From the NCBI GenBank assembly GCA_017505705.1, contig JAFVOS010000008.1:880-64879 (forward strand): DNA of 64,000 bases, written 5' to 3'. The DNA comes from Alphaproteobacteria bacterium (lineage in GTDB: Bacteria > Pseudomonadota > Alphaproteobacteria > Rs-D84). Position numbers and translations under genes: made by a program. The notes below the pieces were generated by a model. That model had not been told where the DNA came from. It saw only the letters and a program-made list of their open reading frames with translations, and did no database searches. Below, in pieces: positions 21,372 to 49,814 of the stretch; positions within the stretch are counted from its first letter, which is position 1, and the number at the start of each line of letters is the position of its first letter.

Positions 21372-21462
21372 GGAGTCGTCGCATAGTTGGTCTAGTGCGC
21401 TACATTGGAAATGTAGTATACTCGCAAGGGTATCAAGGGTTCGAATCCCTTCGACTCCGCCA
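21372..21462 (+). tRNA. tRNA-Ser(GGA), type II, with CCA encoded.
   Basis: Manual fold: acceptor GGAGTCG/CGACTCC, a 3-bp D stem, anticodon stem ctaca/tgtag with loop ttGGAaa, a long variable arm, T arm aaggg-ttcgaat-ccctt and discriminator G+CCA. Confidence 0.85.
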
Positions 21463-21474
21463 GAAATAATCAAA
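21454..21474. repeat. Left copy of the 21-nt direct repeat (tRNA-Ser 3' end plus 12 nt). Candidate left attachment-site junction of the island.
   Basis: actccgccagaaataatcaaa is identical at 49794-49814. Confidence 0.7.
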
Positions 21475-21685: not shown

Positions 21686-22162
21686 ATGAATGTATTAAAT
21701 TGTGTGTTTGCCGGAATAAGTGCTTTTTCTGCCGCTGCGATTGGGATCGCTGCATTTTTTATTTCTAAGGCTCAGTTAAAAATCGATAAACATAAAAAAG
21801 ACGATTTTTTATATGATAAGCGTTTCCAAGTGTACGATGATATAAAAGATATAATACTAAGTGCAAGCTCCGAATTGTTTGCTTTAAATAATAAAGAAAT
21901 TGATGGAATCGATGCAAAATTTGTGCGTCCTTTATATAATAAAGTTAGTTCGTTAATAAGTGATGCAGATTTGTTGTTTAAAGATGAAAATATACGCAGT
22001 TATATTTGCGAGCTACGTTTAGATGTAGCACGCTTATTCGGTGTCAACAATATACAAATTGTTGATGACGATCAGAAGTGCGAAATTATTAAGAAGTGGG
22101 ATGAACAGATGTCGTCTGGTTATATGATAGACTTGTTCGGTAAGTATTTGAAACTAATATAG
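21686..22162 (+). CDS. Hypothetical membrane protein (island cargo).
   Basis: The ORF has a good RBS (aaaggatttaaaATG), an N-terminal TM helix and a low GC content. Confidence 0.4.
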   Translation: MNVLNCVFAGISAFSAAAIGIAAFFISKAQLKIDKHKKDDFLYDKRFQVYDDIKDIILSASSELFALNNKEIDGIDAKFVRPLYNKVSSLISDADLLFKDENIRSYICELRLDVARLFGVNNIQIVDDDQKCEIIKKWDEQMSSGYMIDLFGKYLKLI

Positions 22163-23746
22163 TTGATTCTCTCTTGCAATCTGGAACAAATCATTAACAC
22201 TTATGTGTGTTTCCCCGGACAGGATTTCATTAACCTTGTCCGGATTCATATATGCGATATCCAGATGCCGGTAAAACTGACGTGGCGATGTGTGTTCTTC
22301 TTGGAATATGCGGTGTATGTCCCCATCCCGTTCATACAATTCTCTATATTTCCACGCGGTGGCAAAGGCCTTTAATATCAGGTGGTTATTTACTGTAATG
22401 CTCAGTGTGCCGTTACTTCCATCGCTAAATCTGGTGTTGGCATATCGGCGCAGCACAATGGATCGTACAATCGTTACCGTATCGTCATTAACACTGTATT
22501 CCATGGGATTTGCATTTTGATTGATATGATATTCAGATAAAAATGCATTGAATAACAGTGGATTGGTATTGATATGAAATACCAGTTTTTCATGTGAATA
22601 AATAGCTCGTTCAATCATAACGCGAACCAATTCCCGCCTTTGCAGGTATGACAGGTCTTCCCACACAATCCGTTTCAATGCCAATACCACATTTTGGGAC
22701 AGGGTACTCATATCACTGTTCAGAAATTCGGCTACAACAGACATGGCTATTTCATCCACCTGTGCCGCCGGCAGATAGAATCCCCGTGTTGCATAGTAAT
22801 ATGGCCCAACCTTATCCTTGGGGCATGCGTGCTGATTGGCAAAACGTACACCTTTGTCGTTATACAGCTTTCGTGACAGCAGGTTGGGTGACCGCCTGCG
22901 ATGACTGGTATTATTAGAATTCGCAACCAGTGCATCCTGTACCCGTTGAAATACTTCCGGCGATACGATCTCCTGATGCTCGCCACGGGCAACATTATTG
23001 CTGACTTTGTTTTCAATCATCCCGATATAGATTTTATCTCGTAAAATCTTGTGCATACTGTTCGGTGTAATGGGCTTGCCACCACGCAGCACCCCTTTGG
23101 CGGTTGTCCATGCTTTGGCACGAATCCCATTGCTTTCGGCCCATTGGGTTAAATCATTCACAGATTGCAGTTCCAAGTATTTTTCAAACAACTGTCGCAC
23201 TTGCTCTGCTTCGGCTGGATTTACAATCAGCTTCTTGTCCACGACATCATATCCCAACCGTGGCATGCCTCCCATCCATATGCCTTTGGCTTTACTGGCG
23301 CGTATTTTATCCCGTACTCGTTCGCTGGAAACTTCGCGTTCAAACTGGGCGAACGACAGCAACATATTCAGCGTCAATTTACCCATAGATGTACTGGTGT
23401 CAAACGATTGGGTTATGGACACAAAGTTCGCGTTATGCTTGTTGAAATATTGCATCATCTTATGAAAGTCCAATATGGAACGTGACAGTCGGTCAACCTT
23501 GTAAACCACCACGGTATTTACCAAACCACGTGCCATATCGTCCAACATTTGTTTCAGGGCAGGCCGTTCCATAGTCCCACCAGAAATCGCAGCATCACTG
23601 TAAGTTTTATAATATTGCCACCCATTGAATGATTGGGACGCAATATACGCTTTACAGGCCTCTTCTTGGTTTTGCAGGGAATTGAACTCCATATCAAGTC
23701 CATGCTCGGTTGACTTGCGTGTATAAATCGCACATTTAATTGTCAT
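22154..23746 (-). CDS. Large serine recombinase (resolvase/invertase family integrase).
   Basis: An N-terminal resolvase catalytic domain (AIYTRKST...GGTMERPALKQML...YKVDRLSRS), a recombinase domain and a long C-terminal region. It is 530 aa long. Confidence 0.85.
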   Translation of the reverse strand: MTIKCAIYTRKSTEHGLDMEFNSLQNQEEACKAYIASQSFNGWQYYKTYSDAAISGGTMERPALKQMLDDMARGLVNTVVVYKVDRLSRSILDFHKMMQYFNKHNANFVSITQSFDTSTSMGKLTLNMLLSFAQFEREVSSERVRDKIRASKAKGIWMGGMPRLGYDVVDKKLIVNPAEAEQVRQLFEKYLELQSVNDLTQWAESNGIRAKAWTTAKGVLRGGKPITPNSMHKILRDKIYIGMIENKVSNNVARGEHQEIVSPEVFQRVQDALVANSNNTSHRRRSPNLLSRKLYNDKGVRFANQHACPKDKVGPYYYATRGFYLPAAQVDEIAMSVVAEFLNSDMSTLSQNVVLALKRIVWEDLSYLQRRELVRVMIERAIYSHEKLVFHINTNPLLFNAFLSEYHINQNANPMEYSVNDDTVTIVRSIVLRRYANTRFSDGSNGTLSITVNNHLILKAFATAWKYRELYERDGDIHRIFQEEHTSPRQFYRHLDIAYMNPDKVNEILSGETHISVNDLFQIARENQLY

Positions 23747-24845: not shown

Positions 24846-25874
24846 ATGGCTGGCAAAAGCGGTTTGAAAGTAGGCAGTTTTTTTGCAGGATTAGGCGGAA
24901 TTTGTTTGGGGTTTAAAAATGCCGGGTTTGATCTGGTTTGGTCTAATGAAATAGATGCGGCAGCCTGCAAGACATATAGAGCGAACTTTGATCATGTTTT
25001 GGTTGAAGGTGATATTTGTGCGCTTAGTCCAGATGACAAGAGATTGAAAAAAGTAGATATTATTACCGGTGGGTTCCCTTGTCAGGCTTTTTCTATAGCG
25101 GGATACCGTAAAGGTTTTGAAGACGAGCGTGGGCGAGGGAAGTTGTTTTTTGAAATGTTGCGCTTTATAAAAGCTTACAAACCCAAGGTTCTTTTCTTTG
25201 AAAACGTTCGAAATCTACAAAGCCATAATAATGGTGAAACTTATAAGGCCATTGAAAAAGCATTAACGAATCTCGGTTATCATGTGTGTTCCAAGGTTTT
25301 AGACACTTGTGAATATTCCAGGGTTCCGCAACATCGTGAACGATTTTACATGGTCTGTTTCAAAAGCAAAAGACGTGCCAAATTATTCGATGAAATTGGC
25401 TGGCCTAAAAAAGTTCCGGCCAGCAGACGGTATAAATACTGGGATATTGTTAATGAAACGGCAGATGAGATCCATTATTTCAATCGATACCCCCATTATT
25501 ATAAACCAGCAATGGAAACTATAGAAGCTACTGGTAATGATTGTGAGGCGTTTTATCAGTGGCGCAGGGTTTATTGCCGGAAAAATAAGAATGGTGTATG
25601 TCCGACATTGACAGCAAATATGGGGGGCGGTGGTCATAATGTGCCATTGGTTATGGATAAAAAAGATTTAAGGCGTTTGACCCCAGAAGAATGTTTGAAG
25701 TTACAGGGATTTGACCCGGATACATTCAAATTTCCAGACGATGTTAGCTTGGGTAACAGATATAAACAGATTGGTAACGCAGTTTCGGTTCCTGTTGTGG
25801 AAGAGATAGCGAAGGGTATATTAAAGGTTTTAAGCCCTCAGGACAAAAAAACAACCGATGGGCAAGCTTCGTAA
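24846..25874 (+). CDS. DNA (cytosine-5)-methyltransferase, Dcm-like.
   Basis: Motif I FFAGLGG, motif IV GGFPCQAFS (PC catalytic Cys), motif VI ENV and motif X QIGNAVSVPV. Confidence 0.9.
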   Translation: MAGKSGLKVGSFFAGLGGICLGFKNAGFDLVWSNEIDAAACKTYRANFDHVLVEGDICALSPDDKRLKKVDIITGGFPCQAFSIAGYRKGFEDERGRGKLFFEMLRFIKAYKPKVLFFENVRNLQSHNNGETYKAIEKALTNLGYHVCSKVLDTCEYSRVPQHRERFYMVCFKSKRRAKLFDEIGWPKKVPASRRYKYWDIVNETADEIHYFNRYPHYYKPAMETIEATGNDCEAFYQWRRVYCRKNKNGVCPTLTANMGGGGHNVPLVMDKKDLRRLTPEECLKLQGFDPDTFKFPDDVSLGNRYKQIGNAVSVPVVEEIAKGILKVLSPQDKKTTDGQAS

Positions 25875-25945
25875 ATATTTTGAAAATATTTATATATTTT
25901 ACATATTTAGTTGACATTTGCTATTTGTAGTATACAATCAATGGC

Positions 25946-26161
25946 ATGGATAGTACAAAAAGAGCGAATTTTAAACGGCTTGCGGAAGCAAGAGGAAATA
26001 AGGTGCTGAAAGATTTGCGCCTGGTTGGTAATTTGGCTAATAGACATAATTACGAGTATTCAGATAGGGATATTAATATTTTGTTTTCTGCAATAGAACA
26101 AGAGTTACGTGCCGTTAAAGCGGGTTTTCAACGAAACAAAAAGCACGAGGTAAAATTATGA
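25946..26161 (+). CDS. Small protein (71 aa), the first gene of the GHKL cassette. It may be regulatory.
   Basis: A TTGACA/TACAAT promoter sits ~35 nt upstream. Its stop overlaps the next start in an ATGA arrangement. Confidence 0.4.
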   Translation: MDSTKRANFKRLAEARGNKVLKDLRLVGNLANRHNYEYSDRDINILFSAIEQELRAVKAGFQRNKKHEVKL

Positions 26162-28059
26162 GCGCTGTGAATTGTAAATGGCATTTTCCGTCAACAGATG
26201 GTGGAGATGAGGACGGTATAAATAATAGTGGGTTGCAAACATTCGAGGGCGACCATGAATCTGCCATTGCGCGTGAATGCATACAGAATTCTCTTGATGC
26301 TATAAAAAACCAAAATGCACCAGTTAAAGTGCAAATGCAATTCTTTGAAATTGATACGTCAGATGTACCAGGTGTCGAAGAATTAAAACAAAATATAATG
26401 GCAGCAAAAGAATTTGCTGGCGATACCATGGGAGCAAATATTTTCTTTTCTAAAGCTATAACCACCTTAAATAAAAACAAGATTTCTGTGTTGCGTATAG
26501 GAGATTATAATACAAAGGGGCTTGTTGGGGGTGATAGAGATAAGAATGGAAGCTGGTATAGCCTGGCCAGGTCGAACGGGTTTAGCCAAAAAAACGAAGC
26601 GGATTCTGGTGGGTCATTTGGAATCGGCAAAAATGCTCCATTCGTTGCATCAAATATACGAACAGTTTTTTATTCAACGTTAAATGAAAACGGGGAATAT
26701 ATTTTCCAGGGCAAATCATGTTTATCCAGTTTTAAAAAAGATGATGATGTAAAACGTGGAACTGGCCAATATGGTCAAGTTGCCGCTAAGGGCGTGGCTT
26801 CAATAAGAAACAATGATAACATTCCTGATTTGTTTAAAAGAACAGAAACAGGAACAGATATATTTGTTATCGGTTATCAACATCCTGATGATAAATGGAA
26901 AGATGCTTTGATAAGAGGAATCTTGGATAACTTTTTTGTTGCTATATATTATAAAAAATTAGTTGTGGAAATATTGGATGCAGATGAACTTTTACCGGTG
27001 GTTATTGATGCGGAAAGCTTGGAGTTTTACATAACTAAATATTTCAAAGATGATAATAACGAAGAAAATGCGACCTGGGCATACTATCAGGCTATTGTTG
27101 ATAGTACTAAACATTTTAAAGAAAAGTTAGAACCCTTCGGTAAAGTTGAATTATTTGTTAAAAGTGGGGTAGGAAATAGGAGCGTGTTGGGAATGCGTAA
27201 ACCTCTTATGAAAATAAACACTTTTAAAAACTTCAAACGTTCATACGATGATTTTGCCGGTGTATTTATTGCCCTGGATGATGTCGGAAATAAACTTTTG
27301 AAAAGTATAGAGCCACCTGCGCATAATAAATGGGACCCAGACCTTTGTAGATTAGAAAATTGTGCAAAAAAGCAGGATATCACAAAACTTAAGAATTGGA
27401 TACGTGAAAAATTAGAAAGTATGAATGCTGACGAAAATAAGCATCCTGAAGAAATCGATGATTTGGCCAAATATTTGCCATATGATGAGGCAGAACCTGA
27501 TTTGCCGAGCTGTCCAAGCAATACCGGGAATGCATCTGACGAAAACAACAAAGAGTCGGCAGATGAATTGCCACAACCGCCAGTTATGCAACCAGTTGAG
27601 CCTACACCACAAAGACCGTTGAATTTTATAAGGCCGGGAACGACCAATCCTGATGCTCCTGCTGATGAAATGAAAGTCCCCGTAAATCCAGGGACCAGGA
27701 AACCATTGCATAACAACGCCCCTGTAGAAAGAGACCCAAGCGGTAACGCCAGATTTTTAGATACAGCAAATCTAAATATAAAAACACACGAAGTTCGTAG
27801 GGGTGAAGATAGAGCATACATTTTCAATATTATACCGAAATGTGACGATAGTGGAGATATTGAAATAGTCGCTATAGCTGATGATGGATTCTATCCGGTT
27901 GATGTATCTAGTGCAAAGAACATTGATACAAATCAAGAATATAAAGTTGATAAATCTATCATTCACGATGTAACAACTGAGATGCAAAAATCGATAAGGA
28001 TAGAGATACGATTAAATAAGCAATATAGCAAAAGACGATACATATTAGGAGTTAAATAA
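26158..28059 (+). CDS. GHKL-superfamily ATPase (MutL/MORC/Hsp90-like Bergerat fold) with a disordered Pro-rich linker and a C-terminal domain.
   Basis: N-box ECIQNSLDA (ExxxNSxDA), G1-like IGDYNTKGL and G2-like SGGSFGIGK. It is 633 aa long. Confidence 0.65.
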   Translation: MSAVNCKWHFPSTDGGDEDGINNSGLQTFEGDHESAIARECIQNSLDAIKNQNAPVKVQMQFFEIDTSDVPGVEELKQNIMAAKEFAGDTMGANIFFSKAITTLNKNKISVLRIGDYNTKGLVGGDRDKNGSWYSLARSNGFSQKNEADSGGSFGIGKNAPFVASNIRTVFYSTLNENGEYIFQGKSCLSSFKKDDDVKRGTGQYGQVAAKGVASIRNNDNIPDLFKRTETGTDIFVIGYQHPDDKWKDALIRGILDNFFVAIYYKKLVVEILDADELLPVVIDAESLEFYITKYFKDDNNEENATWAYYQAIVDSTKHFKEKLEPFGKVELFVKSGVGNRSVLGMRKPLMKINTFKNFKRSYDDFAGVFIALDDVGNKLLKSIEPPAHNKWDPDLCRLENCAKKQDITKLKNWIREKLESMNADENKHPEEIDDLAKYLPYDEAEPDLPSCPSNTGNASDENNKESADELPQPPVMQPVEPTPQRPLNFIRPGTTNPDAPADEMKVPVNPGTRKPLHNNAPVERDPSGNARFLDTANLNIKTHEVRRGEDRAYIFNIIPKCDDSGDIEIVAIADDGFYPVDVSSAKNIDTNQEYKVDKSIIHDVTTEMQKSIRIEIRLNKQYSKRRYILGVK

Positions 28060-28061
28060 CT

Positions 28062-28880
28062 ATGACAGATATACCTTTCCCATATCCTGTACTTGGTAGC
28101 AATGGAGACATTGATGGTAGTTTTGATGTAACAATCATGATGGACTTTAGTATTGTCGGATTCTATACATTAAACTGTGAGTTTAAATTGGAAAACGCAT
28201 ATTTTGAAAATCTGATTAAAACACAACAGGCTGTTTACATGGTGGAAATAGAATGTGGCGCGACCAACTATCGTAACTCGTTCTCAACCAAAGATAAAAA
28301 AATGACCATAAGCATCCCAGATGATTTTGTTAGGGGGCGTGTTGACGTTAAGATATACATATGCGCAATCAAAGATATACCAGAATATAAACCAACAGGA
28401 ATGGATACAGAACTTTATGGAGATGATTCTTTCGAAATAAAAAGCGGTGAAATTATTGCTATTCATCCCTCAACAATGTTTCTTGCGGACCCTAAATATG
28501 ATTCTTTTAATGCCCCAATTCGTTCGTTTATAAAACTAAAAAAATCAACTACTCAATCTAAAGAAATGTTTGTGGATTATAACGATACTTTTATAGAAAT
28601 AGCATTACCTGAAGAAGATTATAAGTTATATCGCGAGATACATACCAGTAGTCCAGCATTAATTCATTCCTGTATAGTATTTCCTGTTTTGGTGGATGTG
28701 TTACACGAAATACAAAAAGAAGATAGTGTATATTCAGGAACAACTTGGTTTGATAGAGTAAAACAGATTTGTTTTGATAGACAAATTGATATTGCTGACC
28801 CTGTAGTTGCAGCACAAAAATTATTGGGATTGCCCATTAACAGAACGTTTAACTGGCGTAAAAACGAGCAAGAAAAATAA
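28062..28880 (+). CDS. Hypothetical protein, a cassette component.
   Basis: 272-aa ORF starting 3 nt after the GHKL gene stop. It has no recognisable domain. Confidence 0.45.
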   Translation: MTDIPFPYPVLGSNGDIDGSFDVTIMMDFSIVGFYTLNCEFKLENAYFENLIKTQQAVYMVEIECGATNYRNSFSTKDKKMTISIPDDFVRGRVDVKIYICAIKDIPEYKPTGMDTELYGDDSFEIKSGEIIAIHPSTMFLADPKYDSFNAPIRSFIKLKKSTTQSKEMFVDYNDTFIEIALPEEDYKLYREIHTSSPALIHSCIVFPVLVDVLHEIQKEDSVYSGTTWFDRVKQICFDRQIDIADPVVAAQKLLGLPINRTFNWRKNEQEK

Positions 28881-28891
28881 GGAAATGAAAA

Positions 28892-29665
28892 ATGGCTAAT
28901 TTAAAAGTTTTTGAAAGTACTTTTGTTGAGAAATTACGCGAAGTTAAATCGTTGGATTTTTATACAGACCCAAATTCTGAATTTGATTTGAGTTCTTATC
29001 CCAATGCAGTTTTGGTATCACAAAACACAGAGTTGCCAGATGCGGTTCCTGTTTTGTCGTCAAAGATAGAGGATGATGCACAAAGCGCTGAAAAAATTTT
29101 CAATTATTTGAAAATATCTCCCATCCAAGCATCTGACTCGCGGTTGTGGGCATACTTAACTCATGTAACTTTTTGCAAATATGTCAAATCACGCTGGCCT
29201 ATAGACCAAAAAGATGAAGAAAAAAATAAGATAAAAAAGGTCAGAACACAATGGCTGGCAACAAGTAGTTCAAGAAGTTTTAGAACGAATGCTATTGCTA
29301 GATTATGGTGGGCGGCTTATTCGACTGTTGCGCCATGGGAAAACGATGTGTACTTCAAATCCCTGCCTGATCAATCAGATAGGTTTATTTATACAAAAGT
29401 AATGTTTTCTAAACAGGATATAGCAACAAATCTTTTAGATCGAAGATTTGGACGTTCTCAACATATAATTATTGCAATCCTAGAGTTTATAAGGACTCAC
29501 AAAGAGCTTGAAACACGAAATTTGTATCGTAGCTTTTTTAAGGAAATAAATTTAATGCTAAGTTATTGCAAACTTATGAACCTTAGTCTGGAACAGTTGC
29601 AAAATAAGTTTGAAGAAGTTTATAGTAATTTAACACCGAATGATGAAGATGAGGCAGAGGCTTAA
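28892..29665 (+). CDS. Hypothetical protein, a cassette component.
   Basis: 257-aa ORF starting 12 nt after the previous gene. A terminator follows. Confidence 0.45.
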   Translation: MANLKVFESTFVEKLREVKSLDFYTDPNSEFDLSSYPNAVLVSQNTELPDAVPVLSSKIEDDAQSAEKIFNYLKISPIQASDSRLWAYLTHVTFCKYVKSRWPIDQKDEEKNKIKKVRTQWLATSSSRSFRTNAIARLWWAAYSTVAPWENDVYFKSLPDQSDRFIYTKVMFSKQDIATNLLDRRFGRSQHIIIAILEFIRTHKELETRNLYRSFFKEINLMLSYCKLMNLSLEQLQNKFEEVYSNLTPNDEDEAEA

Positions 29666-29674
29666 TATTGAATA

Positions 29675-29702
29675 ATAAAATCCCCATCATGGGGATTTTG
29701 TG
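29675..29702 (+). terminator. Rho-independent terminator.
   Basis: Hairpin aaaatccccatcatggggatttt. Confidence 0.65.
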
Positions 29703-29725
29703 TAACTTGTCAGGTAAATAGGCTA

Positions 29726-30112
29726 ATGAAAGTAACTGCTGCGATTTTTAGAGATGGGGACCGGGTTCTGCTTATGCGACGGGCGGCGGACCAGCCGTTG
29801 GCGGGCGAATGGGAATACCCAGGTGGCAAGTTTGAAGATGGCGAAGACGGCCCAACATGCCTGCGCAGGGAACTGCTCGAAGAATTGGGTATTGACGCAC
29901 AAATTGGTGACCTGATTACAATTGCAAAACATACAACGGATTCAGGCAAGGTTATTGAACTTCATACATACGAAATTACATCCTACACAGGCGAAATCCA
30001 ACTGCATGTCCACGACGATATGCATTGGGTGTCAGCATTAGAAGTCCCTGCACACCCTCAATTACCAGCTGACTTAATTGTATCAAAAGTCTTATCCCAA
30101 AAACCATATTGA
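29726..30112 (+). CDS. NUDIX hydrolase (MutT-like).
   Basis: Nudix box GGKFEDGEDGPTCLRRELLEELGI (GX5EX7REUXEEXGU). Confidence 0.75.
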   Translation: MKVTAAIFRDGDRVLLMRRAADQPLAGEWEYPGGKFEDGEDGPTCLRRELLEELGIDAQIGDLITIAKHTTDSGKVIELHTYEITSYTGEIQLHVHDDMHWVSALEVPAHPQLPADLIVSKVLSQKPY

Positions 30113-31439: not shown

Positions 31440-32159
31440 ATGGAAGCGTTTATAATAGTCTTTTTAATCTTTGCTGGATTGTTCTTGTTGTTACGGCAAG
31501 AGAACAAGCGAAAGATTGAATATAATAATCATAAACACGAGCAGATTGAATCTGTAACTGCGCTGGACCGTGGTACATGGTCTGAACGCGACTTGGTTTA
31601 TGAATTGCTGGAACATGGTATTGCACCAGGAGCAATCTTTCATGATTTGTATGTAAAAAAGGCAAATGGGCGACATGCACAGATTGACCTGGTGGTTGCA
31701 ACCAAGGTTGGCCTTATTGTGTTTGAGGTAAAAGATTACAGTGGCTGGATTTTTGGACGTGGCAACCAAGACAAATGGACCCAGGTTTTGGCCTATGGTC
31801 GTGATAAGTATCGTTTCTATAACCCGATTAAACAGAATGCGGGGCATATTGCAGAGCTGCAAAAACAGTCCAAACAGATGTCTGAAATCCCGATGTTTTC
31901 AGTTGTGGTATTTTATGGTGGCTGCACATTGCGTGATGTCAGTATCATTCCACATAATACCTATGTAACAACATGGCGACGTGTATTGGATGTAGTAGAT
32001 ACTATTTTGGAAGAAAATGAACCTGCAAACTATACCGATAAACACGAAATAGTTCGTATATTAAAGGCGGCTGTTGAAAATGGCGCCAATGAAAACATGG
32101 CCGAACAACACGCAGACGCAGTTCAAGATATGCTGGGGCAGGATAGAGTTTTTGATTAA
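31440..32159 (+). CDS. NERD (nuclease-related domain) protein with an N-terminal TM helix.
   Basis: Core IDLVVATKVGLIVFEVKDYSGWI...W, followed by a HIAELQ region typical of NERD. Confidence 0.6.
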   Translation: MEAFIIVFLIFAGLFLLLRQENKRKIEYNNHKHEQIESVTALDRGTWSERDLVYELLEHGIAPGAIFHDLYVKKANGRHAQIDLVVATKVGLIVFEVKDYSGWIFGRGNQDKWTQVLAYGRDKYRFYNPIKQNAGHIAELQKQSKQMSEIPMFSVVVFYGGCTLRDVSIIPHNTYVTTWRRVLDVVDTILEENEPANYTDKHEIVRILKAAVENGANENMAEQHADAVQDMLGQDRVFD

Positions 32160-32433: not shown

Positions 32434-33783
32434 TTACGGCTTTTTTAGAATTAAAATATTTTCTCTCAGCTTATATTTGTGTGATGTTGAATTTTTCATT
32501 TGCCATAAAATTATTTCGGAATCGCAAAAACCGACACTTTTTGCAACCTCTGCTAATAATTCAGCTGTTTTTATGTGAACCATTTTAAAAGCATGAGAAT
32601 CACTTACGAGCAAAGCTATCTTACCACCAGGTTTTAATACTTTCAAACATTCAGAAAGTGTCATAGCCATTCCACCAAAATATTCCCATATCAATTTAGT
32701 ATATAATTTTTCAAAACCACTTGTAGCCCCATCGTTTTTTAATCGTTGATCAATTTCATTTGTTACTGTTTTGATCCCGTTAATATTTTCAATCCATTTT
32801 TTGTCGTTGTCTTCTTTGTAAATATTTGTTGTGGAACCACGAATCATGCGTTTTTTTATGGTTCTAAAAGAAGACAAATCAGTAGCATAACCATTGAATA
32901 TCAATTCAAGTTTGGAATGTTTCGTATATTCATGGTCCCCAGGATAGGGTGGAGATGTAATCATTAGATCGACAGATTCTGGAGCAAAATAATCAGACAG
33001 ATGGCGGCTGTCTCCAAGTATGGTTTCAGAGAGGGTTTGACGTTGTTCTTCCGAAACAGATAACAAGTCTTTTATTATTAAGTCTACTTTTTTAATAAAG
33101 TAAGACATGACATCAACATCTGGTTTTTGTTTGCCGACACCAAAACCAGGACCATATCTCACGTTCGAAACAGGTACTAAAATTGCAGAAATAGCGAACA
33201 TAAATAGATCGTGGTGAGCCGCTGATAGTTTTGCCTCATTAACTGCTTCTTTTAGAATGTTGATTTTTATCAGAGGCTTATCCGATATATAACGTATATC
33301 TAATGCTTGTGGGCGGCTTTGATTTGCTTTTGTTGCGACTAACAAATCATCGTTCAAGTCAATGCTAGCAATCTTTGCTTTGTATATGTTGCAAATTCGA
33401 ATTTTCTCTTTTTCTAAGATAGTAGTGTCTATATTCCAATTTAACTTTTGTAAAGCAGCAAATACCATAAAATCGTTTGCATCTATGCCGTACGAAGGTA
33501 TTTTATTGAGTTTGCATACTAATTGTGTTGTGCCCGATCCAACAAACGGATCCATTACCACTTGACCATTATTCGGTTTTATACCTTCTCTTTTTAACAT
33601 GTATTCAGGAAATGTTGGTGTATAACCCAAAACAAAATTGTACCAATCATGAAAAGGATATCCGTTTGAAGAAGATGCTCTACCAGCATAAGTGTCTATA
33701 ACAGGCATACACTTATCTGCCTTTGCAAGTTGTTCGCAAACTTCGCATGTGTCTCTAGTTGGTTTGTGATAAGAATATGCCAT
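32434..33783 (-). CDS. DNA amino-methyltransferase (N6-adenine or N4-cytosine), the modification subunit of the type II R-M system.
   Basis: Motif I DPFVGSGTT and motif IV SPPY. It is adjacent to the REase candidate and the C-protein. Confidence 0.8.
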   Translation of the reverse strand: MAYSYHKPTRDTCEVCEQLAKADKCMPVIDTYAGRASSSNGYPFHDWYNFVLGYTPTFPEYMLKREGIKPNNGQVVMDPFVGSGTTQLVCKLNKIPSYGIDANDFMVFAALQKLNWNIDTTILEKEKIRICNIYKAKIASIDLNDDLLVATKANQSRPQALDIRYISDKPLIKINILKEAVNEAKLSAAHHDLFMFAISAILVPVSNVRYGPGFGVGKQKPDVDVMSYFIKKVDLIIKDLLSVSEEQRQTLSETILGDSRHLSDYFAPESVDLMITSPPYPGDHEYTKHSKLELIFNGYATDLSSFRTIKKRMIRGSTTNIYKEDNDKKWIENINGIKTVTNEIDQRLKNDGATSGFEKLYTKLIWEYFGGMAMTLSECLKVLKPGGKIALLVSDSHAFKMVHIKTAELLAEVAKSVGFCDSEIILWQMKNSTSHKYKLRENILILKKP

Positions 33784-33788
33784 AACAG

Positions 33789-34670
33789 TTACTCCCCGTC
33801 CATCCAAGATTTTATTGTTGGGTTCAAAACAATTTTTATAGTTTCAATAACATTAAACATACTAATATTGTTGTTATTGCCAGAATCATATTCTGGATTG
33901 TGTTCAAGTACAGCAAGCATCATACCATCTCGTTCCATTCTGGCAGCAATTGGTCTGACGATTAGCTTACCCTTTAATTCTCGATACTTTTCCATAAATA
34001 CGTTATATTGCCCATTCATCTGAACAAGGTTTATATCATCAGCGGTACTAACGGCCTTTGCTTCAACGGGATAAGCACAAATATTTTCGCCATCTTGGGC
34101 CATATAATAGCCATCTATTTCATTTGGTTGCCACTTCATTGGTGACTGAATGCGGTACACTTTCTGGCCAAAAATTTTTGAAAAAATGTCGCAGTAATCA
34201 ATAACACTAAATAAAGAAGCTTCATCATTTGAAATAAAAGCGCGAACAAGGGCAGGAAGATCGTTATTTATAACTATAACTCTGTCAGGTGTTCCCCAAT
34301 CCAACCAGTCTTGGATAGGTCTTGTGTTTCCGTTCTCGTCAAATCCGCGATACACGAATGTGCCGCAATAATTATCGCCGGAATTATCTGGTACTCTGCC
34401 AGTTTTTTTACGCAAATCATATCCAAAATCTATTACTTCTTGTGGTAATCGTTGTTGTATCGTATTTTTCTTACGTGTCAAATCAAGCACAAAATTTGAC
34501 CAAGAAGTGGGTGGAATACCACCAGTGGCCCTAATGGCTTGGCCAACTTCGGGTAATGTAAAGTCTATGTTTTTCCCGATGTTCACAGTTCCATTATTGG
34601 TCTTTTTCATGAAAATGTACTTCAATGTATCCATTTTGCTGTATTTGTTTGCCATAAAAAACCTCATCAT
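33789..34670 (-). CDS. Putative type II restriction endonuclease.
   Basis: The ORF sits between the controller and methylase genes. It has a PD-(D/E)xK-like D...VEAK segment and no other homology. Confidence 0.45.
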   Translation of the reverse strand: MMRFFMANKYSKMDTLKYIFMKKTNNGTVNIGKNIDFTLPEVGQAIRATGGIPPTSWSNFVLDLTRKKNTIQQRLPQEVIDFGYDLRKKTGRVPDNSGDNYCGTFVYRGFDENGNTRPIQDWLDWGTPDRVIVINNDLPALVRAFISNDEASLFSVIDYCDIFSKIFGQKVYRIQSPMKWQPNEIDGYYMAQDGENICAYPVEAKAVSTADDINLVQMNGQYNVFMEKYRELKGKLIVRPIAARMERDGMMLAVLEHNPEYDSGNNNNISMFNVIETIKIVLNPTIKSWMDGE

Positions 34671-34710
34671 TTATGGCACATCAGATGTGTACCAGAGTTG
34701 TTGCTTGTAG

Positions 34711-34926
34711 TCAACAATTATTGTCAAGATCAAAAAAATCTCTCATAGACACTTCAAGAGCGTTGGCGATTTTTTCAATACTTATAATTGTTGCATTCCT
34801 TTTTCCGCTTTCTATTCCTGCCAGATATGTTCGATCTATACCCGCTTTCAAGGCTAATTTTTCTTGAGATAACCCCATTTGATTTCTCAAAAATTTAATT
34901 CGATTTCCGACTCTTTTTGTGATCAT
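34711..34926 (-). CDS. HTH XRE-family controller (C) protein.
   Basis: IKFLRNQMGLSQEKLALKAGIDRTYLAGIESGKRN forms a classic helix-turn-helix. It lies upstream of R and M on the same strand. Confidence 0.7.
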   Translation of the reverse strand: MITKRVGNRIKFLRNQMGLSQEKLALKAGIDRTYLAGIESGKRNATIISIEKIANALEVSMRDFFDLDNNC

Positions 34927-35642: not shown

Positions 35643-37088
35643 TTAAAAATACCCACGGCGGGCGCTGAGGTACAGGCCATCAATATGGCCGATGCCTTGG
35701 GAAAATGCATCGCATTGATCTTTGAATGTAGATGCCGGGAATGTCAGCAATTCGTCCAGAAAATCTGGCCACCATGCGCCGGCTGTATTCGGAAACACAA
35801 TCGTCCCGTTTTGAATATAGGCCGTTGTTGCGTTTAATCGGGATTCTTTGTCTGATATTGGCTTGATTGGTTCAACACTCATCCTGTGTTGAGCACGTAA
35901 CTGTTGTATCAATGCGGTGCCAGATGACGCATCTTCAATCAGTGTTGTTGTCGGGCAGTTGCCGTGCGCTTGTTGTGTTTGGGTGTGTAATTCCGCCACA
36001 CGCTTTAAGATGGCAGGGTATTCCAGCCGTCCACGTTCCACGGCCAGCAAGTACACACGATTGTCAATTCCGACCCCGAATATAGCGCATGCCGAATATG
36101 CGTTTGTAATACCGGTCTTAGATGCAGTATCCCATGACAGAAAGATATGCTTGAAGCGCTGGGGCAATTCATTATAAAAGTGCAACCAAGACCGTTTAAC
36201 CAATCCACCATCTTTTGGAACGGGGCGTTGTTGATATTGTCCTGCAAAGGCATATTCGCCCAGTGTCTGACGCAAATGTGCGACAGAGTTCATGTCTTCA
36301 CGTTCTGGATGCAGCAGTTCACCAGCATGACGAGCAATGTCGTGCCTGTATCCAAACTTGTCTGTATATGACCAATCTTCATCCGCCTCCGCAATCATTG
36401 GTATCGTGATATGACGAAAGCCAGATTGTTTTTCCAGTAAATACCCCGTCAAATCACTTTGATGCAGACGTTGCATAATAACCAGTATATTGCCCGTATT
36501 TTTATTGTTCAAACGCGAATAGAGTGTCGTCGCATACCAATCGTTAACTTTGTTGCGCAAAACGTCTGACAAACCGTCCGATGCCTTTAATGGGTCATCA
36601 ATGATAATCCAGTCACCACCACGTCCGGTCAAAGTTCCGTTTATAGTTGTTGAAAATCGTCCGCCACCACGTGTTGTTTGAAAGTCCATGGTTGCACTGC
36701 GCCTGTGATCAATTTTAGTACATGGAAACAGGTCCGCATACCAGGCGGTTTCCATCACAGTACGACAATCGTTGGCAAATTTCTTGGTCAGTTCGTCCGC
36801 ATAGCTGACGCATATAATTTGTGTTTGCGGATTCAGCCCCAGTAAATATGCCGGTAATGCTACCGAACAGATAATAGATTTCATATTTCGTGGCGGAATA
36901 TTCACAATCAGGCGATTGTTATCACCACTTATCATTTGTTCGATTTCGTTACATACAACATCTATATGCCAATTATCCAGATATTGTGCGCCTGCGGACA
37001 CTTCGTTAAACACCTTAATCGCAAAGGATTTAAAGTCTGACCGCAACAACGCGCGCAAGAATTCTAAATCATTTATTCTTTCGTCCAT
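35643..37088 (-). CDS. Phage or GTA-type terminase large subunit.
   Basis: The N-terminus DNWHIDVVCNEIEQ...LIVNIPPRNMKS matches the terminase_6-like ATPase layout with a deviant Walker A, and a C-terminal nuclease-like region follows. It is clustered with a ParB-methylase. Confidence 0.55.
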   Translation of the reverse strand: MDERINDLEFLRALLRSDFKSFAIKVFNEVSAGAQYLDNWHIDVVCNEIEQMISGDNNRLIVNIPPRNMKSIICSVALPAYLLGLNPQTQIICVSYADELTKKFANDCRTVMETAWYADLFPCTKIDHRRSATMDFQTTRGGGRFSTTINGTLTGRGGDWIIIDDPLKASDGLSDVLRNKVNDWYATTLYSRLNNKNTGNILVIMQRLHQSDLTGYLLEKQSGFRHITIPMIAEADEDWSYTDKFGYRHDIARHAGELLHPEREDMNSVAHLRQTLGEYAFAGQYQQRPVPKDGGLVKRSWLHFYNELPQRFKHIFLSWDTASKTGITNAYSACAIFGVGIDNRVYLLAVERGRLEYPAILKRVAELHTQTQQAHGNCPTTTLIEDASSGTALIQQLRAQHRMSVEPIKPISDKESRLNATTAYIQNGTIVFPNTAGAWWPDFLDELLTFPASTFKDQCDAFSQGIGHIDGLYLSARRGYF

Positions 37089-37443
37089 TTATAAATCCCC
37101 GAATAATTGCCTGATCATCACTGGAAATGGCATTGTGTTGTTTGTCCAGTGATTCATTACGCGAATCCAGCTGTTGCATCAATGGTAATATTTGGGCGGT
37201 GGCTTTCAGGTCACCTTTGGCCGATTGATTAACCAGTTGCAACATAATTGCCTGTTTTTTAGTAATTTGTCGTGTACCTGCAACTGAATCCACATTTACT
37301 TGTTCGTTCAACGCCACTTCTAACAATGTCAGCGTGTTAATGCTGCCTTTCTTGCGCCCGTGCGGATTACCAGATTGGCCTGGGCGAAACCTAGAATGTT
37401 TCGGTGGATTCATATATCCAACCTTGTCTTTCTTATCTGTCAT
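37069..37443 (-). CDS. DUF5681-like phage protein, possibly a terminase small subunit.
   Basis: Signature PPKHSRFRPGQSGNPHGRKKGS. It is located immediately upstream of the large terminase. Confidence 0.4.
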   Translation of the reverse strand: MTDKKDKVGYMNPPKHSRFRPGQSGNPHGRKKGSINTLTLLEVALNEQVNVDSVAGTRQITKKQAIMLQLVNQSAKGDLKATAQILPLMQQLDSRNESLDKQHNAISSDDQAIIRGFINGRKNK

Positions 37444-38750
37444 TTAGCGCCCCTTTTGTCTGCCAATTTTTGATTGTATGTTTGGCCGGATTGCACGTGT
37501 ATTGCATCAATTCCAAATAACTCTTGGAATCGCCGGATGGTTGTGTCTATGTATATCGGTTCTAATTCAATGCCGCGGCAAACGCGTCCCGCCTGTTGTG
37601 CGGCAATCAGTGTGCTGCCTGAACCCAAGAACGAATCCAGAACAATTCCGCCACGCGGCGTGCAATCCAGTATTGCATCACGCAACATCTCAACAGGTTT
37701 GACGGTTGGATGCAGTTTCAGGTCGCCCTTGTGTTGCCCAAATGAATTTGCACCCGCATATTGCCATACATTGGTGCGATATCGGCCATGTTTGCCCAAT
37801 TGCACGTTATTCATATGGCTTTTCTTACCGTTGCGGAATATAAAGCATAATTCGTGCTGACTGCGATACAACGAACCCATGCCACCAGTCTTTTTTACCC
37901 ATACGCACATATTGATAAATTCATCAAATACGGCATTTCCTGCGGTCATAATTTCCGATATGTGGCGCCAGTCCATAAAATTATAGTGCAGGGCGCCATC
38001 CTTAGAGTGTGCCTTGCACAGAAAAAAGTTTTGTTTCAGGAAATTGATAAATTCTTCCACTGACATCTCGCCCGATGCCATGGCAAACTCTTTATGGTGT
38101 ATTGCGCCCGAACCGCAAACATGCCCATTGATTTTTACATTGTATGGCGGATCCTGCAAAACAGTATCGGCCACCGCCCCGTCCATTAGTTGATTAAAAG
38201 TAGATTCTTCTAAACTGTTGCCACAAATAATTCTGTGCGGGCCAATTTGCCAAATATCGCCAGGCACAGACACTATTTCATCTTCGGGTATAAACGGTAT
38301 GTGGTTGGCTTTTGGGTCTGCAGGAACAGTGTCGCCCAGATTGATTATTTGATCTAATTCTGCATCGTTAAAGCCGGTAATTCGTATGTCCAGATCGCCC
38401 GCGCATATCTGTTCTAAATCTTTGATTTCCAATTGCAACAGTTCCAGATTCCAACCGCCATTTTCAGCGATTTTATTATCTGCCAGTCTATATGCTCGTT
38501 TTTGCTTTTCGTTCAGGTGTGAAAGTGTGATAGTGGGAACGGTGCTAAGTCCCATTTGTTTTGCAGCGATATATCTGCCGTGGCCGGCAATAATCTCGCC
38601 ATGTTCATCAATCAGGATTGGATTATTAAAACCAAATTCGGTAATAGATTTTCTTATTTGTTTAATTTGTGATTCAGGATGATTCCGCGCATTGCGTTCA
38701 TATCCATGTATGCTCTCTAGTGCAGAGTAAGCGACATTCATTTCTGACAT
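37440..38750 (-). CDS. ParB-like nuclease domain fused to a DNA methyltransferase (beta-class amino-MTase), a phage-type methylase.
   Basis: An N-terminal ParB/Srx motif (IIAGHGRYIAAKQMG), motif IV DPPYN and C-terminal motif I DSFLGSGST. Confidence 0.8.
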   Translation of the reverse strand: MSEMNVAYSALESIHGYERNARNHPESQIKQIRKSITEFGFNNPILIDEHGEIIAGHGRYIAAKQMGLSTVPTITLSHLNEKQKRAYRLADNKIAENGGWNLELLQLEIKDLEQICAGDLDIRITGFNDAELDQIINLGDTVPADPKANHIPFIPEDEIVSVPGDIWQIGPHRIICGNSLEESTFNQLMDGAVADTVLQDPPYNVKINGHVCGSGAIHHKEFAMASGEMSVEEFINFLKQNFFLCKAHSKDGALHYNFMDWRHISEIMTAGNAVFDEFINMCVWVKKTGGMGSLYRSQHELCFIFRNGKKSHMNNVQLGKHGRYRTNVWQYAGANSFGQHKGDLKLHPTVKPVEMLRDAILDCTPRGGIVLDSFLGSGSTLIAAQQAGRVCRGIELEPIYIDTTIRRFQELFGIDAIHVQSGQTYNQKLADKRGAK

Positions 38751-38962: not shown

Positions 38963-39571
38963 TTAAAAAAATAAACGGCTTTGTAAGAATTGGTGGAAAT
39001 CTGTAAATGATGGTGTATATATGTGTGTGGGGTGAGATATTAAAGCAGCAGAAAGATTTAATCGTTTTGCGGGTTCTATATCTAATAAATAATTATCGCC
39101 AACAACACAAACCTCATCTTCAGATAATTTATACTGGTTTATGATTTTTTTATAGCAACTCCCTTTATTAGATGTGTGTTCTTGTGCAATCGAGAAAGCA
39201 TCAGTGACTAAATTTTCCAATTGTAATAAGGATAGTACTCGCTTAATATGCTCCGCAGGAGAAAGAGAAACAACAAAAAGGTTTAACTTCATACTAGCCA
39301 ACAAGTTATTCATTCCTGTGTTCGGCCTCAAAACGCTATAATCAAGCTTATTATGTACATTGGTATAGTATGTTTTCTTAGGAATTTGTAGAACCTTTAA
39401 TGCATCCAGAATATTTGGATATATTTCCTCTAATCTAGTCAACTGATTTTTTGACATACCAGTCGCAGAAGATAAAAAAGAATCTGCCAAATTATCAATT
39501 TGACGAGTTAATCCGTTTGATTTTGGATAAAGCGTCCCATCAAGGTCTGAAATAATAGTGGTTTTTTTCAT
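38963..39571 (-). CDS. HAD-superfamily hydrolase or phosphatase.
   Basis: Motif I DLDGTL and motif IV GDNYLLDIE. Confidence 0.65.
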   Translation of the reverse strand: MKKTTIISDLDGTLYPKSNGLTRQIDNLADSFLSSATGMSKNQLTRLEEIYPNILDALKVLQIPKKTYYTNVHNKLDYSVLRPNTGMNNLLASMKLNLFVVSLSPAEHIKRVLSLLQLENLVTDAFSIAQEHTSNKGSCYKKIINQYKLSEDEVCVVGDNYLLDIEPAKRLNLSAALISHPTHIYTPSFTDFHQFLQSRLFF

Positions 39572-39616
39572 AATGGATATGATATAATTACTATAATCAA
39601 AAATAAAGTAAATTTT

Positions 39617-40873
39617 ATGGGAAAGGTAAAGTTTAAAATAATAAACTCTTCTGATTTAAGAACTGCGGTAAAAACTGCATTTTGTAACTATAGTGAATTC
39701 GCATTTTATCATAACATAGAAGTAAAAGACGTAAAAAAGAGATTCAGAGCATTTGAGTTCAATGACAAGAAATATATAGCTAAACAAACTAAAAGCGCAA
39801 CAGCAAAAGAAGAAATAGCAAATGCGACACGTGCCGCCAAGATGTTAAATGGCTTGACAGTGTCAGGACTTACATTAAACGTTATTGAGCCTGTTCTAAT
39901 AACAATAAACAATGTATGTTATCTTGTGTCTGAATACAAAGGCACAACGTTGCATGAGTATGTATATAATGATAAAAGGCTGCCACTGACACAGGGGGCT
40001 TTGATGGAAGTATTCTCTTTCTTGCTTAAGAAAGGTGTTATGCATCCAGGTTTTTTGCCAAGGAACATAATTATAAATCAGGAATATTTGTTCATACTTG
40101 ATTGGGAAAATGTCCTTTTTAGCAAAAAAGCAGTGACAAATGTTCTACGGTATATTTCTGTCGCTGAATTTATAAACAATTGGGGATGTTTGTATAATAG
40201 AGAGAACCTGTTAGGTTTTATTCATAAATACACAGATAATAAAAGAATTAGCAGTCAAACCGGTTCTTTCGGAAAGGAATATGCTTTTTTAACAGGCTGC
40301 AGTAATAACAAAAGAGGGTTGAAGTCAGAAATAGAAAATATTATTCTGGTGGCAGAATCGGGAGGACATGTTCGTGGAAAAACTTATATGGTTCCATGTG
40401 ATCTGGGTCATCTTGTTTCCGACACATTTCCTCGTTGCATAGATGTTTTTCATGATTTATTTTTATTCTGTATACAAAAGGACGAGAAACTTTTGAGAAA
40501 ATATCTTGAACTGATGACAGTTTATTACAATATATATATGAAAAATCTTAACAATTATACTGATTTCGACAAAGCGCATTTAGTTGTTCCTATATTGCTG
40601 GTTCTGGATAACCAGATAAATAATATCGAAACAAGAAAAATAGCACGAGTTAAAAGCCTAATGGATGCAAGTAGGTTGGTCGGGAAGAGCATAGCGACAG
40701 ACAGTGTAACGTGTCATTACATGAAAAAGAATAAGATAAAACTTAGAAATGCATTGGATGATAAAATCACAAGCATGCTAAAAATGCACCTACCAATTTC
40801 TCAGATAAGAAAGACAAGAATCAATCCAATAAGAATAATAGAGACCATAGACGAAATGTCCTCTAATCTATGA
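39617..40873 (+). CDS. Kinase-like protein (APH/choline-kinase-like fold).
   Basis: Catalytic-loop-like HPGFLPRNIIIN and an ILDWE motif (D-W-E of APH-type phosphotransferases). Confidence 0.45.
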   Translation: MGKVKFKIINSSDLRTAVKTAFCNYSEFAFYHNIEVKDVKKRFRAFEFNDKKYIAKQTKSATAKEEIANATRAAKMLNGLTVSGLTLNVIEPVLITINNVCYLVSEYKGTTLHEYVYNDKRLPLTQGALMEVFSFLLKKGVMHPGFLPRNIIINQEYLFILDWENVLFSKKAVTNVLRYISVAEFINNWGCLYNRENLLGFIHKYTDNKRISSQTGSFGKEYAFLTGCSNNKRGLKSEIENIILVAESGGHVRGKTYMVPCDLGHLVSDTFPRCIDVFHDLFLFCIQKDEKLLRKYLELMTVYYNIYMKNLNNYTDFDKAHLVVPILLVLDNQINNIETRKIARVKSLMDASRLVGKSIATDSVTCHYMKKNKIKLRNALDDKITSMLKMHLPISQIRKTRINPIRIIETIDEMSSNL

Positions 40874-42814: not shown

Positions 42815-42924
42815 GGCGTACCTCTTTAAATAGGATAATATACGATAATATGATTTCTATCAAGTAGTTATTGTTTTTTGTCATATTTGTGTTATGCTGA
42901 ATCTAAAAAATAAGGTGATAAACA

Positions 42925-44586: not shown

Positions 44587-44595
44587 CCTAGAGGA

Positions 44596-46518: not shown

Positions 46519-47551
46519 GAATAGCTTGCCACGTTTGACAAAGGACGAGCTGTTATATTACTTACAACAGTTTGCAGATTTCTCGTCTTATTACCAGTGT
46601 GCTGTTTTTTACGTGATTATTAAAAATCATTTATTGGGCTCAATGGGTAATGACAGCTATCAGGAATATCATAAATTAGTTCACGAACTGTTCCTATATG
46701 TAAACGACAAGAGGCAATTTGTCTCCATTATAGATGCATTTCTAGGGCAAACGACCACAGAAAATATAACATCAAATAATATTTTCAATATAGTTAAGAG
46801 TTGTATAGGCAAAGATTGCGATTATTTTACTAAGACACTTATATTTAATACATGGCTTTTCAAGAATAATTTATGCCCATTGCTTTGTTTTGCGTTTGGA
46901 GCATGGCAGGTTGAACCGGAAGTAACAGAAGATAAGTTGCAAGATATTATAGAGTTAACAATAATGTCTGTTTATAGAATTGTAGCTCACGCTCCAGAAA
47001 AGGACGACAAAACGTTGTTTAATGATAGCGGTGGTGTTTTTGACGTGCATATAACAGAAGATAAGCAGCATGTAAAAAAATACCCAAAGAATTATGCTGC
47101 GCTGGCATTTTTAGCACAACAAGAGGTAGAGTCTTTTGAATATTTTGGTAAGATTCCAGGATTAAAGCAGTTTTTGCCTCTTATGTATTCCTTAGATGCA
47201 CAAAGTAAGGTGCTGACGCACACATTTATAAATGGAATATCTGGGGATGATATCTTGAAAACAATAGGCCATCTGACAGGAAAGCAAAAAAAACAGTTGG
47301 CAAGCTTTTATGATATATATATGAAATATCCAGAAATGCGCTTTTTAGATGTACATCCAGGTAATTTTATTTGGGAACCTAAGACAGAACGTTGGTTTCT
47401 TATAGACTTAGGACTAATACCAAAAATTGGCTCAGATTATTATAAATGGGATAATTTTGATATGTACTTTCATAATGTGTGGGAAACTCGTTTATGGCAA
47501 ATGAAAAATGTGCCAATAAGGTCGTTAGATTACGCATTAACAAGCATATAA
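46502..47551 (+). CDS. Kinase-like protein (protein-kinase-like fold).
   Basis: A DVHPGNFIW catalytic-loop-like segment followed by FLIDLG (DFG-like). Confidence 0.4.
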   Translation: MHCNDKNSLPRLTKDELLYYLQQFADFSSYYQCAVFYVIIKNHLLGSMGNDSYQEYHKLVHELFLYVNDKRQFVSIIDAFLGQTTTENITSNNIFNIVKSCIGKDCDYFTKTLIFNTWLFKNNLCPLLCFAFGAWQVEPEVTEDKLQDIIELTIMSVYRIVAHAPEKDDKTLFNDSGGVFDVHITEDKQHVKKYPKNYAALAFLAQQEVESFEYFGKIPGLKQFLPLMYSLDAQSKVLTHTFINGISGDDILKTIGHLTGKQKKQLASFYDIYMKYPEMRFLDVHPGNFIWEPKTERWFLIDLGLIPKIGSDYYKWDNFDMYFHNVWETRLWQMKNVPIRSLDYALTSI

Positions 47552-47597
47552 ACATATACAAAAATAAAAAATGTCAATTTTTTTTAGTGTAAATACT

Positions 47598-47630
47598 TGA
47601 AAATCAAAAAAAAGCGATTATAATATACGT
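47598..47630 (+). promoter_or_regulatory. Sigma70-type promoter (TTGAAA, 16 nt spacer, TATAAT) for tyrS.
   Basis: Seen in the sequence upstream of the tyrS RBS aagagga. Confidence 0.45.
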
Positions 47631-47660
47631 ATATGAAAACAATAAAGAGGATTTTATAGA

Positions 47661-49793: not shown

Positions 49794-49814
49794 ACTCCGC
49801 CAGAAATAATCAAA
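49794..49814. repeat. Right copy of the 21-nt direct repeat. Candidate right attachment-site junction of the island.
   Basis: Identical to 21454-21474. Confidence 0.7.

Follow-up and report, generated by a model that had tools for sequence, protein, structure and literature searches.

The DNA analysed here is a window of 64,000 nucleotides (nt) of contig JAFVOS010000008.1 (assembly GCA_017505705.1, positions 880-64,879 of the forward strand) from a metagenome-assembled "Alphaproteobacteria bacterium", in which a gene for a C5-cytosine DNA methyltransferase (Dcm) is followed by four closely spaced genes encoding proteins of 71, 633, 272 and 257 amino acids (aa), here termed S71, A, B and C, with A, B and C together forming the trio. 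Judged by its profile matches and gene order, the trio is a member of PDC-M33 on every feature tested, an architecture already catalogued as an uncharacterised candidate phage defence system. Three points go beyond the catalogue entry: A and B are assigned predicted structures, the coupling of the trio to Dcm and Vsr is quantified, and a fourth gene, S71, is added. Combining gene neighbourhoods, residue conservation and structure prediction, we tentatively regard the whole cassette as a Dcm-coupled five-gene form of PDC-M33, which may act as an ATP-driven, methylation-discriminating module against foreign DNA.

PDC-M33 membership and layout of the cassette

The proteins of the cassette were searched with the profiles of PADLOC-DB v2 (v2.0.0, 2023), and membership was judged by profile matches together with gene order. 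Protein A matched the PDC-M33A model PDLC04582 over nearly its whole length (E = 2.9e-136, residues 6-623 on profile positions 3-615 of 627), B matched the PDC-M33B model PDLC04583 (E = 8.4e-54, residues 6-268) and C matched the PDC-M33C model PDLC04586 (E = 5.4e-29) as well as three further M33C models. The adjacency of the genes, their location on the single plus strand and the order A>>B>>C agree with the PDC-M33 cassette definition. In the source of that definition, PDC-M33 is cassette CAS_00129 (FAM_02818>>FAM_02838>>FAM_01881, count 98), for which supplementary table 8 records the decision "Assign as candidate PDC-M33", and it is one of 145 untested "guilt-by-embedding" phage defence candidates drawn from genes that lie inside BREX, DISARM and Type I restriction-modification (R-M) systems (Payne et al. 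2024, bioRxiv 10.1101/2024.01.29.577857). No fold, domain or mechanism for PDC-M33 was found in the main text of that preprint or in the supplementary tables drawn on here, no main-text mention of PDC-M33 or DUF6339 was found in the searchable literature, and no characterisation of PDC-M33 was found in the literature on GHKL/MORC ATPases and phage defence. An earlier prediction made from the bare sequence of this stretch (the original prediction) had presented the cassette as an undescribed system without a name. That claim falls, as the trio corresponds to PADLOC PDC-M33A, B and C, just the kind of match that the prediction itself had named as counting against it, though the catalogue entry is only an untested candidate.

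The cassette and its putative regulatory sites are arranged as follows, the genes being taken from an open reading frame (ORF) scan.

24846-25874, plus strand: Dcm, 342 aa, C5-cytosine DNA methyltransferase
25911-25938, plus strand: promoter-like site, TTGACA-16-TACAAT, 11/12 consensus matches (pattern match only)
25946-26161, plus strand: S71, 71 aa, conserved small protein
26158-28059, plus strand: A (PDC-M33A), 633 aa, predicted MORC/MutL-like GHKL ATPase
28062-28880, plus strand: B (PDC-M33B), 272 aa, predicted beta-sandwich plus helical protein
28892-29665, plus strand: C (PDC-M33C), 257 aa, Pfam DUF6339
~29678-29700, plus strand: terminator-like hairpin (sequence and predicted fold)

The scan reproduced exactly the reading frames, sizes, single strand and ATGA overlap given in the original prediction. 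The stop codon of S71 and the start codon of A share the ATGA at 26158-26161, and the remaining gaps are 2 nt between A and B, 11 nt between B and C and 71 nt between Dcm and S71. The upstream gene was likewise confirmed as a C5-cytosine methyltransferase by PF00145 (E = 3.7e-80) and TIGR00675 (E = 3.2e-86), and it matched PADLOC MTase_II (E = 3.8e-104). All four non-Dcm proteins are annotated as hypothetical (MBR2012161-164; S71 is MBR2012161.1, PGAP). Their homologues are conserved in syntenic order in dozens of genomes across phyla, and the four ORFs are therefore real genes rather than chance reading frames.

The site at 25911-25938 is the best promoter-like match in the region, its -10 element ending 7 nt before the S71 ATG, and no Shine-Dalgarno sequence is visible before that ATG; in the same consensus scan the number of promoter-like sites in the region was not above the shuffled expectation. 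If real, this site may serve as an internal promoter from which S71 and the trio would be transcribed separately from Dcm, with almost no leader. On the other side of the cassette, a hairpin 3' of C (AAAATCCCCAT-CAT-GGGGATTTT) with a 12-bp stem and a folding energy of -15.3 kcal/mol (z = -3.55 versus shuffles) is in line with the closing terminator that had been proposed, though a simple terminator scan of the region did not report it.

When 1.84 billion representatives were searched with a profile of A, 7,265 clusters (50% identity) matched, of which 2,161 reached E <= 1e-30, and relatives of A are encoded in at least 404 species-representative genomes. Synteny was analysed in the best 80 loci from other genomes, covering the Candidate Phyla Radiation (CPR), Bacillota, Bacteroidota, Verrucomicrobiota, Acidobacteriota, Thermodesulfobacteriota, Cyanobacteria and others. 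Of these loci, 74 have a recognisable B and 72 a recognisable C, and the order A-B-C was kept in all 72 with both, so that the view of a conserved cassette was borne out by its neighbourhoods across genomes; loci without both B and C mostly end at a contig edge. The pairwise distance matrices of the three proteins are correlated with one another (Mantel rho 0.52-0.67), which together with the constant gene order shows the trio to be co-inherited. The trio is patchily distributed and fast-evolving, with a median pairwise identity of 26-28%, and the system was found on 29 plasmids, including those of dairy Lactococcus and of Ligilactobacillus (gut lactobacilli).

Predicted folds of the cassette proteins

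The AlphaFold model of A (mean predicted local distance difference test score, pLDDT, 78.7) consists of a folded part at residues ~1-420, a disordered Pro-rich linker at 426-530 (pLDDT < 50) and a small, beta-rich C-terminal domain of ~95 residues at 539-633, in agreement with the linker and C-terminal domain that had been anticipated. Residues ~1-420 are predicted to form a Bergerat GHKL domain and, after it, a transducer domain of the S5 type. The motifs ECIQNSLDA, DYNTKG and GSFGIGK, on which the GHKL call had originally been based, are present in the translation and, as evidenced in a 34-member alignment of the A family, sit on invariant columns (E40, N44 and D47; D116 and G121; G151-K158), with G151, G152, S153, G155, G157 and K158 specifically invariant in the glycine-rich motif. 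In motif IV, G232 is invariant and T233 nearly so, and A thus carries all of the GHKL motifs I-IV (ExxxNxxD, DxGxG-like, GxxGxG and GT). None of the Pfam GHKL models, HATPase_c and HATPase_c_3 included, matched A or its 33 homologues at E <= 1, no Pfam or NCBIfam model of any family, those for MutL included, matched A, and a PDB profile search with A gave nothing; only structure prediction revealed the GHKL fold. From its model, A is predicted to be a cryptic MORC/MutL-type GHKL ATPase with intact ATP-site residues. The most conserved feature of A outside the ATP site is the segment E385-P386-P387-x-H389-x-x-W392 (EPPxHxxW, window ~27310-27333), which lies in a loop after the transducer domain and is invariant in the 34 homologues; it may serve in partner docking, DNA contact or catalysis.

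The model of B (mean pLDDT 89.3) comprises an FN3/Ig-like beta-sandwich region at residues ~20-182 and a helical C-terminal domain at 184-271. Foldseek returned no match for B at E <= 1e-3, the weak ones being cytokine-receptor-like tandem FN3 domains, and no modified-base reader of the SRA, EVE or PUA type was among its structural matches. Its invariant residues, P9, R71, G129, S155, W229 and Q252, show no likeness to a nuclease site. No enzymatic fold was found in the model, and B is presumed to be an adaptor or sensor.

Protein C matches PF19866 (DUF6339) with E = 1.4e-36, so the earlier statement that the 272- and 257-aa proteins lack recognisable domains does not stand for the latter. All 65 members of the C family that were scanned are DUF6339 proteins in which a second domain never recurs, and the C-terminal extension of the long variants (330-376 aa) carries no recognisable domain. 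Conserved positions in C are W86, R84, R101, W139, W140, N65, N220 and D62. The possibility that B and C are paralogues was rejected, with an hhalign probability of 0.2%.

S71 has invariant F9, A13, R16, N32 and Y36 across 33 sequences; it gave no Pfam or PDB match and has no known relatives. PDB profile searches with B, C and S71 returned only noise (CENP-M, ferritin/histone H4 and a tetracycline destructase tail). Homologues of S71 lie directly upstream of A in 36 of the 80 loci (~45%). Judging from this conservation and from the ATGA overlap, which probably couples its translation to that of A, S71 is a real, conserved fourth gene of the cassette, previously unlisted and outside the PADLOC PDC-M33 model.

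Methylase coupling and competing readings of function

Linkage to Dcm was counted over 77 of the 80 loci. Of these, 44 have a homologue of Dcm no more than 3 kb from the core and 37 have one within 1 kb; in 21 loci it is on the same strand at a distance of <= 300 bp, and 10 loci, which belong to several phyla, have it directly against the core or overlapping with it. Vsr is encoded near the core in 20 loci. The distances of A and Dcm correlate with a Mantel rho of 0.42, and S71 is overrepresented in Dcm-linked loci (26/33 against 18/44; Fisher p = 0.0011). These counts suggest that linkage to a C5 methylase is far more frequent than neighbourhood chance would produce. The closest relatives of the present cassette (L081 and L082, whose A proteins are 77% and 67% identical) retain the order Dcm-small ORF-A-B-C while their flanks differ, one of them having an OLD-family ATPase on one side of the cassette and a Type I HsdR on the other; the same five genes in different surroundings therefore move as a unit. 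Dcm is thus best described as an optional but frequent partner of the core and is presumed to be its self-marking enzyme.

In three Paenibacillaceae loci (L014, L018 and L023, from Saccharibacillus and Paenibacillus), two Dcm genes flank A-B-C. The upstream product measures ~360-380 aa and the downstream one ~560-600 aa, an arrangement that recalls the two-methylase systems for asymmetric sites.

According to the tentatively preferred reading, for which there is a real though less than even case, Dcm would mark the resident genome and A would dimerise upon ATP binding in a MutL/MORC-like manner, clamping DNA, while B and C would supply target discrimination and the effector step, so that foreign DNA without the methyl mark would be disabled. 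The effector may be a cryptic activity in C, which is the only core component left where such an activity could hide, or a nuclease that is recruited, Vsr and other nucleases often being encoded nearby; alternatively, the clamp may itself block or compact the DNA.

Several observations weigh against this methylation-discriminating scheme. Dcm is absent within three genes of the core in 31 of the 77 loci (~40%), which is unexpected for a classical restriction enzyme because a cognate methylase must neutralise such an enzyme; the original description of the system as methylation-associated accordingly holds for ~57-60% of loci and fails for the remaining ~40%. No consistent alternative methylase was found in the Dcm-less loci (HsdM in six and one D12 methylase). 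The correlation of A and Dcm distances could merely reflect shared host phylogeny. Neither the model of A nor that of B showed a nuclease or any other effector fold, so that the earlier remark that no nuclease is evident is supported for these two, and no invariant acidic triad was seen in the C family. Relatives of A were found on only 4 of 2.9 million viral contigs, and the defence role of PDC-M33 is itself of candidate status, the family being one of the 145 mentioned above. Within the preferred reading, since ~40% of loci lack a nearby Dcm, the trio probably keeps some autonomous activity.

An alternative is that the trio, with or without S71, is a self-sufficient and methylation-blind defence system, next to which Dcm and Vsr would be a separate orphan methylase or R-M remnant sharing the same islands. 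It is consistent with the PADLOC definition, which comprises three genes and no methylase, with the heterogeneous neighbours of the Dcm-less loci (GmrSD, LlaJI, Type I R-M, PLD-helicase, queuosine, YajC and transport genes, hence housekeeping functions among them) and with a Lactococcus plasmid on which the R-M system next to A is of the AlwI type and has adenine methylases instead of a Dcm. It fits poorly with the Dcm genes that stop against or within the core in several phyla, with the 21 same-strand loci, with the five-gene unit retained between different flanks and with the correlation of S71 and Dcm. We regard it as a serious contender that is nevertheless on the doubtful side.

A variant of the Dcm-coupled scheme dispenses with a nuclease altogether. 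The trio would then be a prokaryotic counterpart of the MORC silencing of eukaryotes, in which a methylation-guided GHKL clamp traps, compacts or transcriptionally silences incoming DNA that is unmethylated; Dcm would provide the self-mark, loading or reading would fall to B and C, and regulation to S71. We consider this form unlikely.

Distinctly unlikely is the explanation that the trio serves as a MutL-like accessory of Dcm/Vsr very-short-patch repair, aiding in the recognition or processing of T:G mismatches from 5-methylcytosine deamination, and does not act in defence. The MutL layout of A, the presence of Vsr near the core in 20 loci and of Dcm in 44, and the NUDIX (MutT-like) gene that follows the cassette here would all suit such a role, and a functional interaction of E. 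coli MutL with Vsr, cited by Iyer et al. 2008 (PMC2292703), is established. Against it, no Vsr is adjacent to the present cassette and most Dcm-linked loci are also without Vsr, the trio occurs without Dcm in ~40% of loci, and its patchy distribution, rapid evolution (26-28% median identity) and location on islands and plasmids fit conflict systems, as does the discovery of PDC-M33 inside systems of the BREX, DISARM or Type I R-M kind. Finally, a Type IV-like, modification-dependent system directed at foreign modification, with a linked Dcm of non-overlapping specificity, is very improbable, as the GmrSD-type neighbours in several Dcm-less loci and the ~40% of loci that would need no self-protecting methylase are set against a tight operonic coupling to a C5 methylase that would risk self-targeting, the lack of an SRA, EVE or PUA reader among the structural matches of B and the lack of an identified nuclease.

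Should the Dcm-coupled module read methylation and do without a conventional nuclease, it would connect immunity in bacteria with the eukaryotic axis of MORC and DNA methylation; if C hides a nuclease, it would be one more ATP-dependent R-M variant. PDC-M33 is a widespread orphan to which a predicted GHKL motor, the wiring to a C5 methylase in most loci (often with Vsr) and a small protein omitted from the catalogue model can now be added.

Genomic setting and relation to known systems

The cassette sits in a mobile, defence-rich island. It lies inside a ~28.4-kb integrated element at tRNA-Ser(GGA) (21372-21462), and the 3' end of this gene forms a 21-bp direct repeat (ACTCCGCCAGAAATAATCAAA) whose copies at 21454-21474 and 49794-49814 delimit the element; together with the serine recombinase listed below, these repeats substantiate the recombinase-bearing island that had been proposed. 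A 15-bp partial copy of the repeat occurs at 49977-49991, 180 bp past the repeat at 49794-49814, a remnant suggesting that integration took place in tandem or on an earlier occasion. Tyrosine integrases leave repeats of this length more typically than does a serine recombinase such as the one encoded at the left end. The GC content is 0.33-0.39 inside the element versus 0.41-0.46 outside. Besides the cassette, the island carries the following features.

22154-23746: large serine recombinase, upstream of the cassette, with a DUF2924 protein
29726-30112, plus strand: NUDIX (MutT-like) hydrolase, starting 61 nt after the cassette, just past the hairpin
31440-32159, plus strand: NERD protein (E = 5e-25), between the cassette and the second R-M unit
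32434-34926, minus strand: second apparent R-M unit (controller, ORF and methylase)
34711-34926, minus strand: HTH_3 controller-like protein of the second R-M unit
33789-34670, minus strand: 293-aa ORF, possible endonuclease, no Pfam match, overlapping the N6_N4 methylase gene
32434-33807, minus strand: N6_N4 methylase of the second R-M unit
35643-38750, minus strand: phage remnants, a terminase large-subunit-like gene (Terminase_6C only) and a ParB_N-N6_N4 methylase fusion
38963-48941: metabolic cluster in the low-GC right half of the island

NUDIX genes recur in four related loci, and a role in clearing modified dCTP or other deoxynucleoside triphosphates (dNTPs) from the pool is conceivable. 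The NERD gene is preceded by ORFs of 130 and 270 aa without Pfam matches, and fusions of ParB_N with an N6_N4 methylase are typical of phages and plasmids. The genes at 38963-48941 encode a HAD hydrolase, a transketolase-like protein, a pyridoxal-phosphate-dependent decarboxylase, a carbamoyltransferase, an ABC1-kinase-like protein and an extra, complete tyrosyl-tRNA synthetase, the last of which, standing beside biosynthetic enzymes, resembles the self-resistance gene of a natural-product cluster.

In other genomes, relatives of the cassette adjoin Type I R-M, GmrSD, LlaJI, OLD and PLD-helicase genes, with PLD-ResIII helicase-nuclease genes in only ~10 of the 80 loci. A protein of 890-1185 aa is encoded directly beside A-B-C in several Clostridia and Bacilli loci (L037:5386-8175, L040:11385-14285, L051:4800-8357, L073:4062-7613, L074:5339-8002 and L077:11458-14727); in the size range of 930-1185 aa such a neighbour was counted in eight loci. 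It carries DNA-binding RNA polymerase alpha C-terminal-domain-like/HhH repeats or a sigma-70 region 4-like segment, with no methylase and no nuclease, and may be an alternative accessory replacing Dcm; it is not counted in the system.

Among named systems, DISARM and Druantia are approached only through Dcm, which gives generic DrmMII and DruM matches, while A, B, C and S71 match no model there and the neighbours of the cassette include no helicase or DUF1998 domains. Classical Type II R-M shares the methylase, and differs in that no nuclease fold is found in A or B and that co-occurrence with Dcm is not constant. LlaJI combines 5-methylcytosine methylases with a multi-subunit restriction complex containing a McrBC-like AAA+ GTPase and a PD-(D/E)xK nuclease. 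The likeness lies in the coupling of one or more C5 methylases to an NTP-dependent multi-protein module, some relatives of the present cassette having two flanking Dcm genes; the difference is that the motor here is predicted to be a GHKL ATPase and a recognisable nuclease is lacking. With MutL, A shares a GHKL and S5 N-terminal domain, a flexible linker and a C-terminal domain in the same layout. It has no Pfam or NCBIfam MutL match, its C-terminal domain is small and beta-rich, in contrast to the dimerisation/endonuclease domain of MutL, and unlike MutL it is island-borne, patchy, fast-evolving and tied to B and C as obligate partners.

Another GHKL ATPase is paraMORC3/type I-D Shedu VcSduA, which belongs to an experimentally shown anti-phage system that requires its ATPase activity (PMC12137116). 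VcSduA unites its parts in one polypeptide, with a DUF4263 PD-(D/E)xK nuclease at the C-terminus, whereas A has no such domain and relies on two separate partners. The PADLOC PDC-M33 entry has the same three core proteins in the same order and on one strand; its definition stops at three genes, and the present cassette and many of its relatives add a C5 methylase and a protein of ~72 aa in an operon-like unit.

Iyer, Abhiman & Aravind 2008 (PMC2292703) place prokaryotic MORC and paraMORC GHKL ATPases in R-M operons beside cytosine methylases and Vsr, with the proposed role of an engine that uses ATP to clamp or loop DNA, an SF-II helicase partner being typical of ~70% of MORC operons. A differs in failing the Pfam GHKL models, the unit conserved here comes without an SF-II helicase or a recognisable nuclease, and B and DUF6339 are not among the partners described in the sections of that paper drawn on here. 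The predicted GHKL and S5 domains of A with intact ATP motifs, the association with a cytosine methylase and Vsr and the proposed clamp or looping role are of the same kind, and by this analogy the cassette would, in its working, most resemble the R-M operons that Iyer et al. 2008 predicted for MORC and paraMORC proteins.

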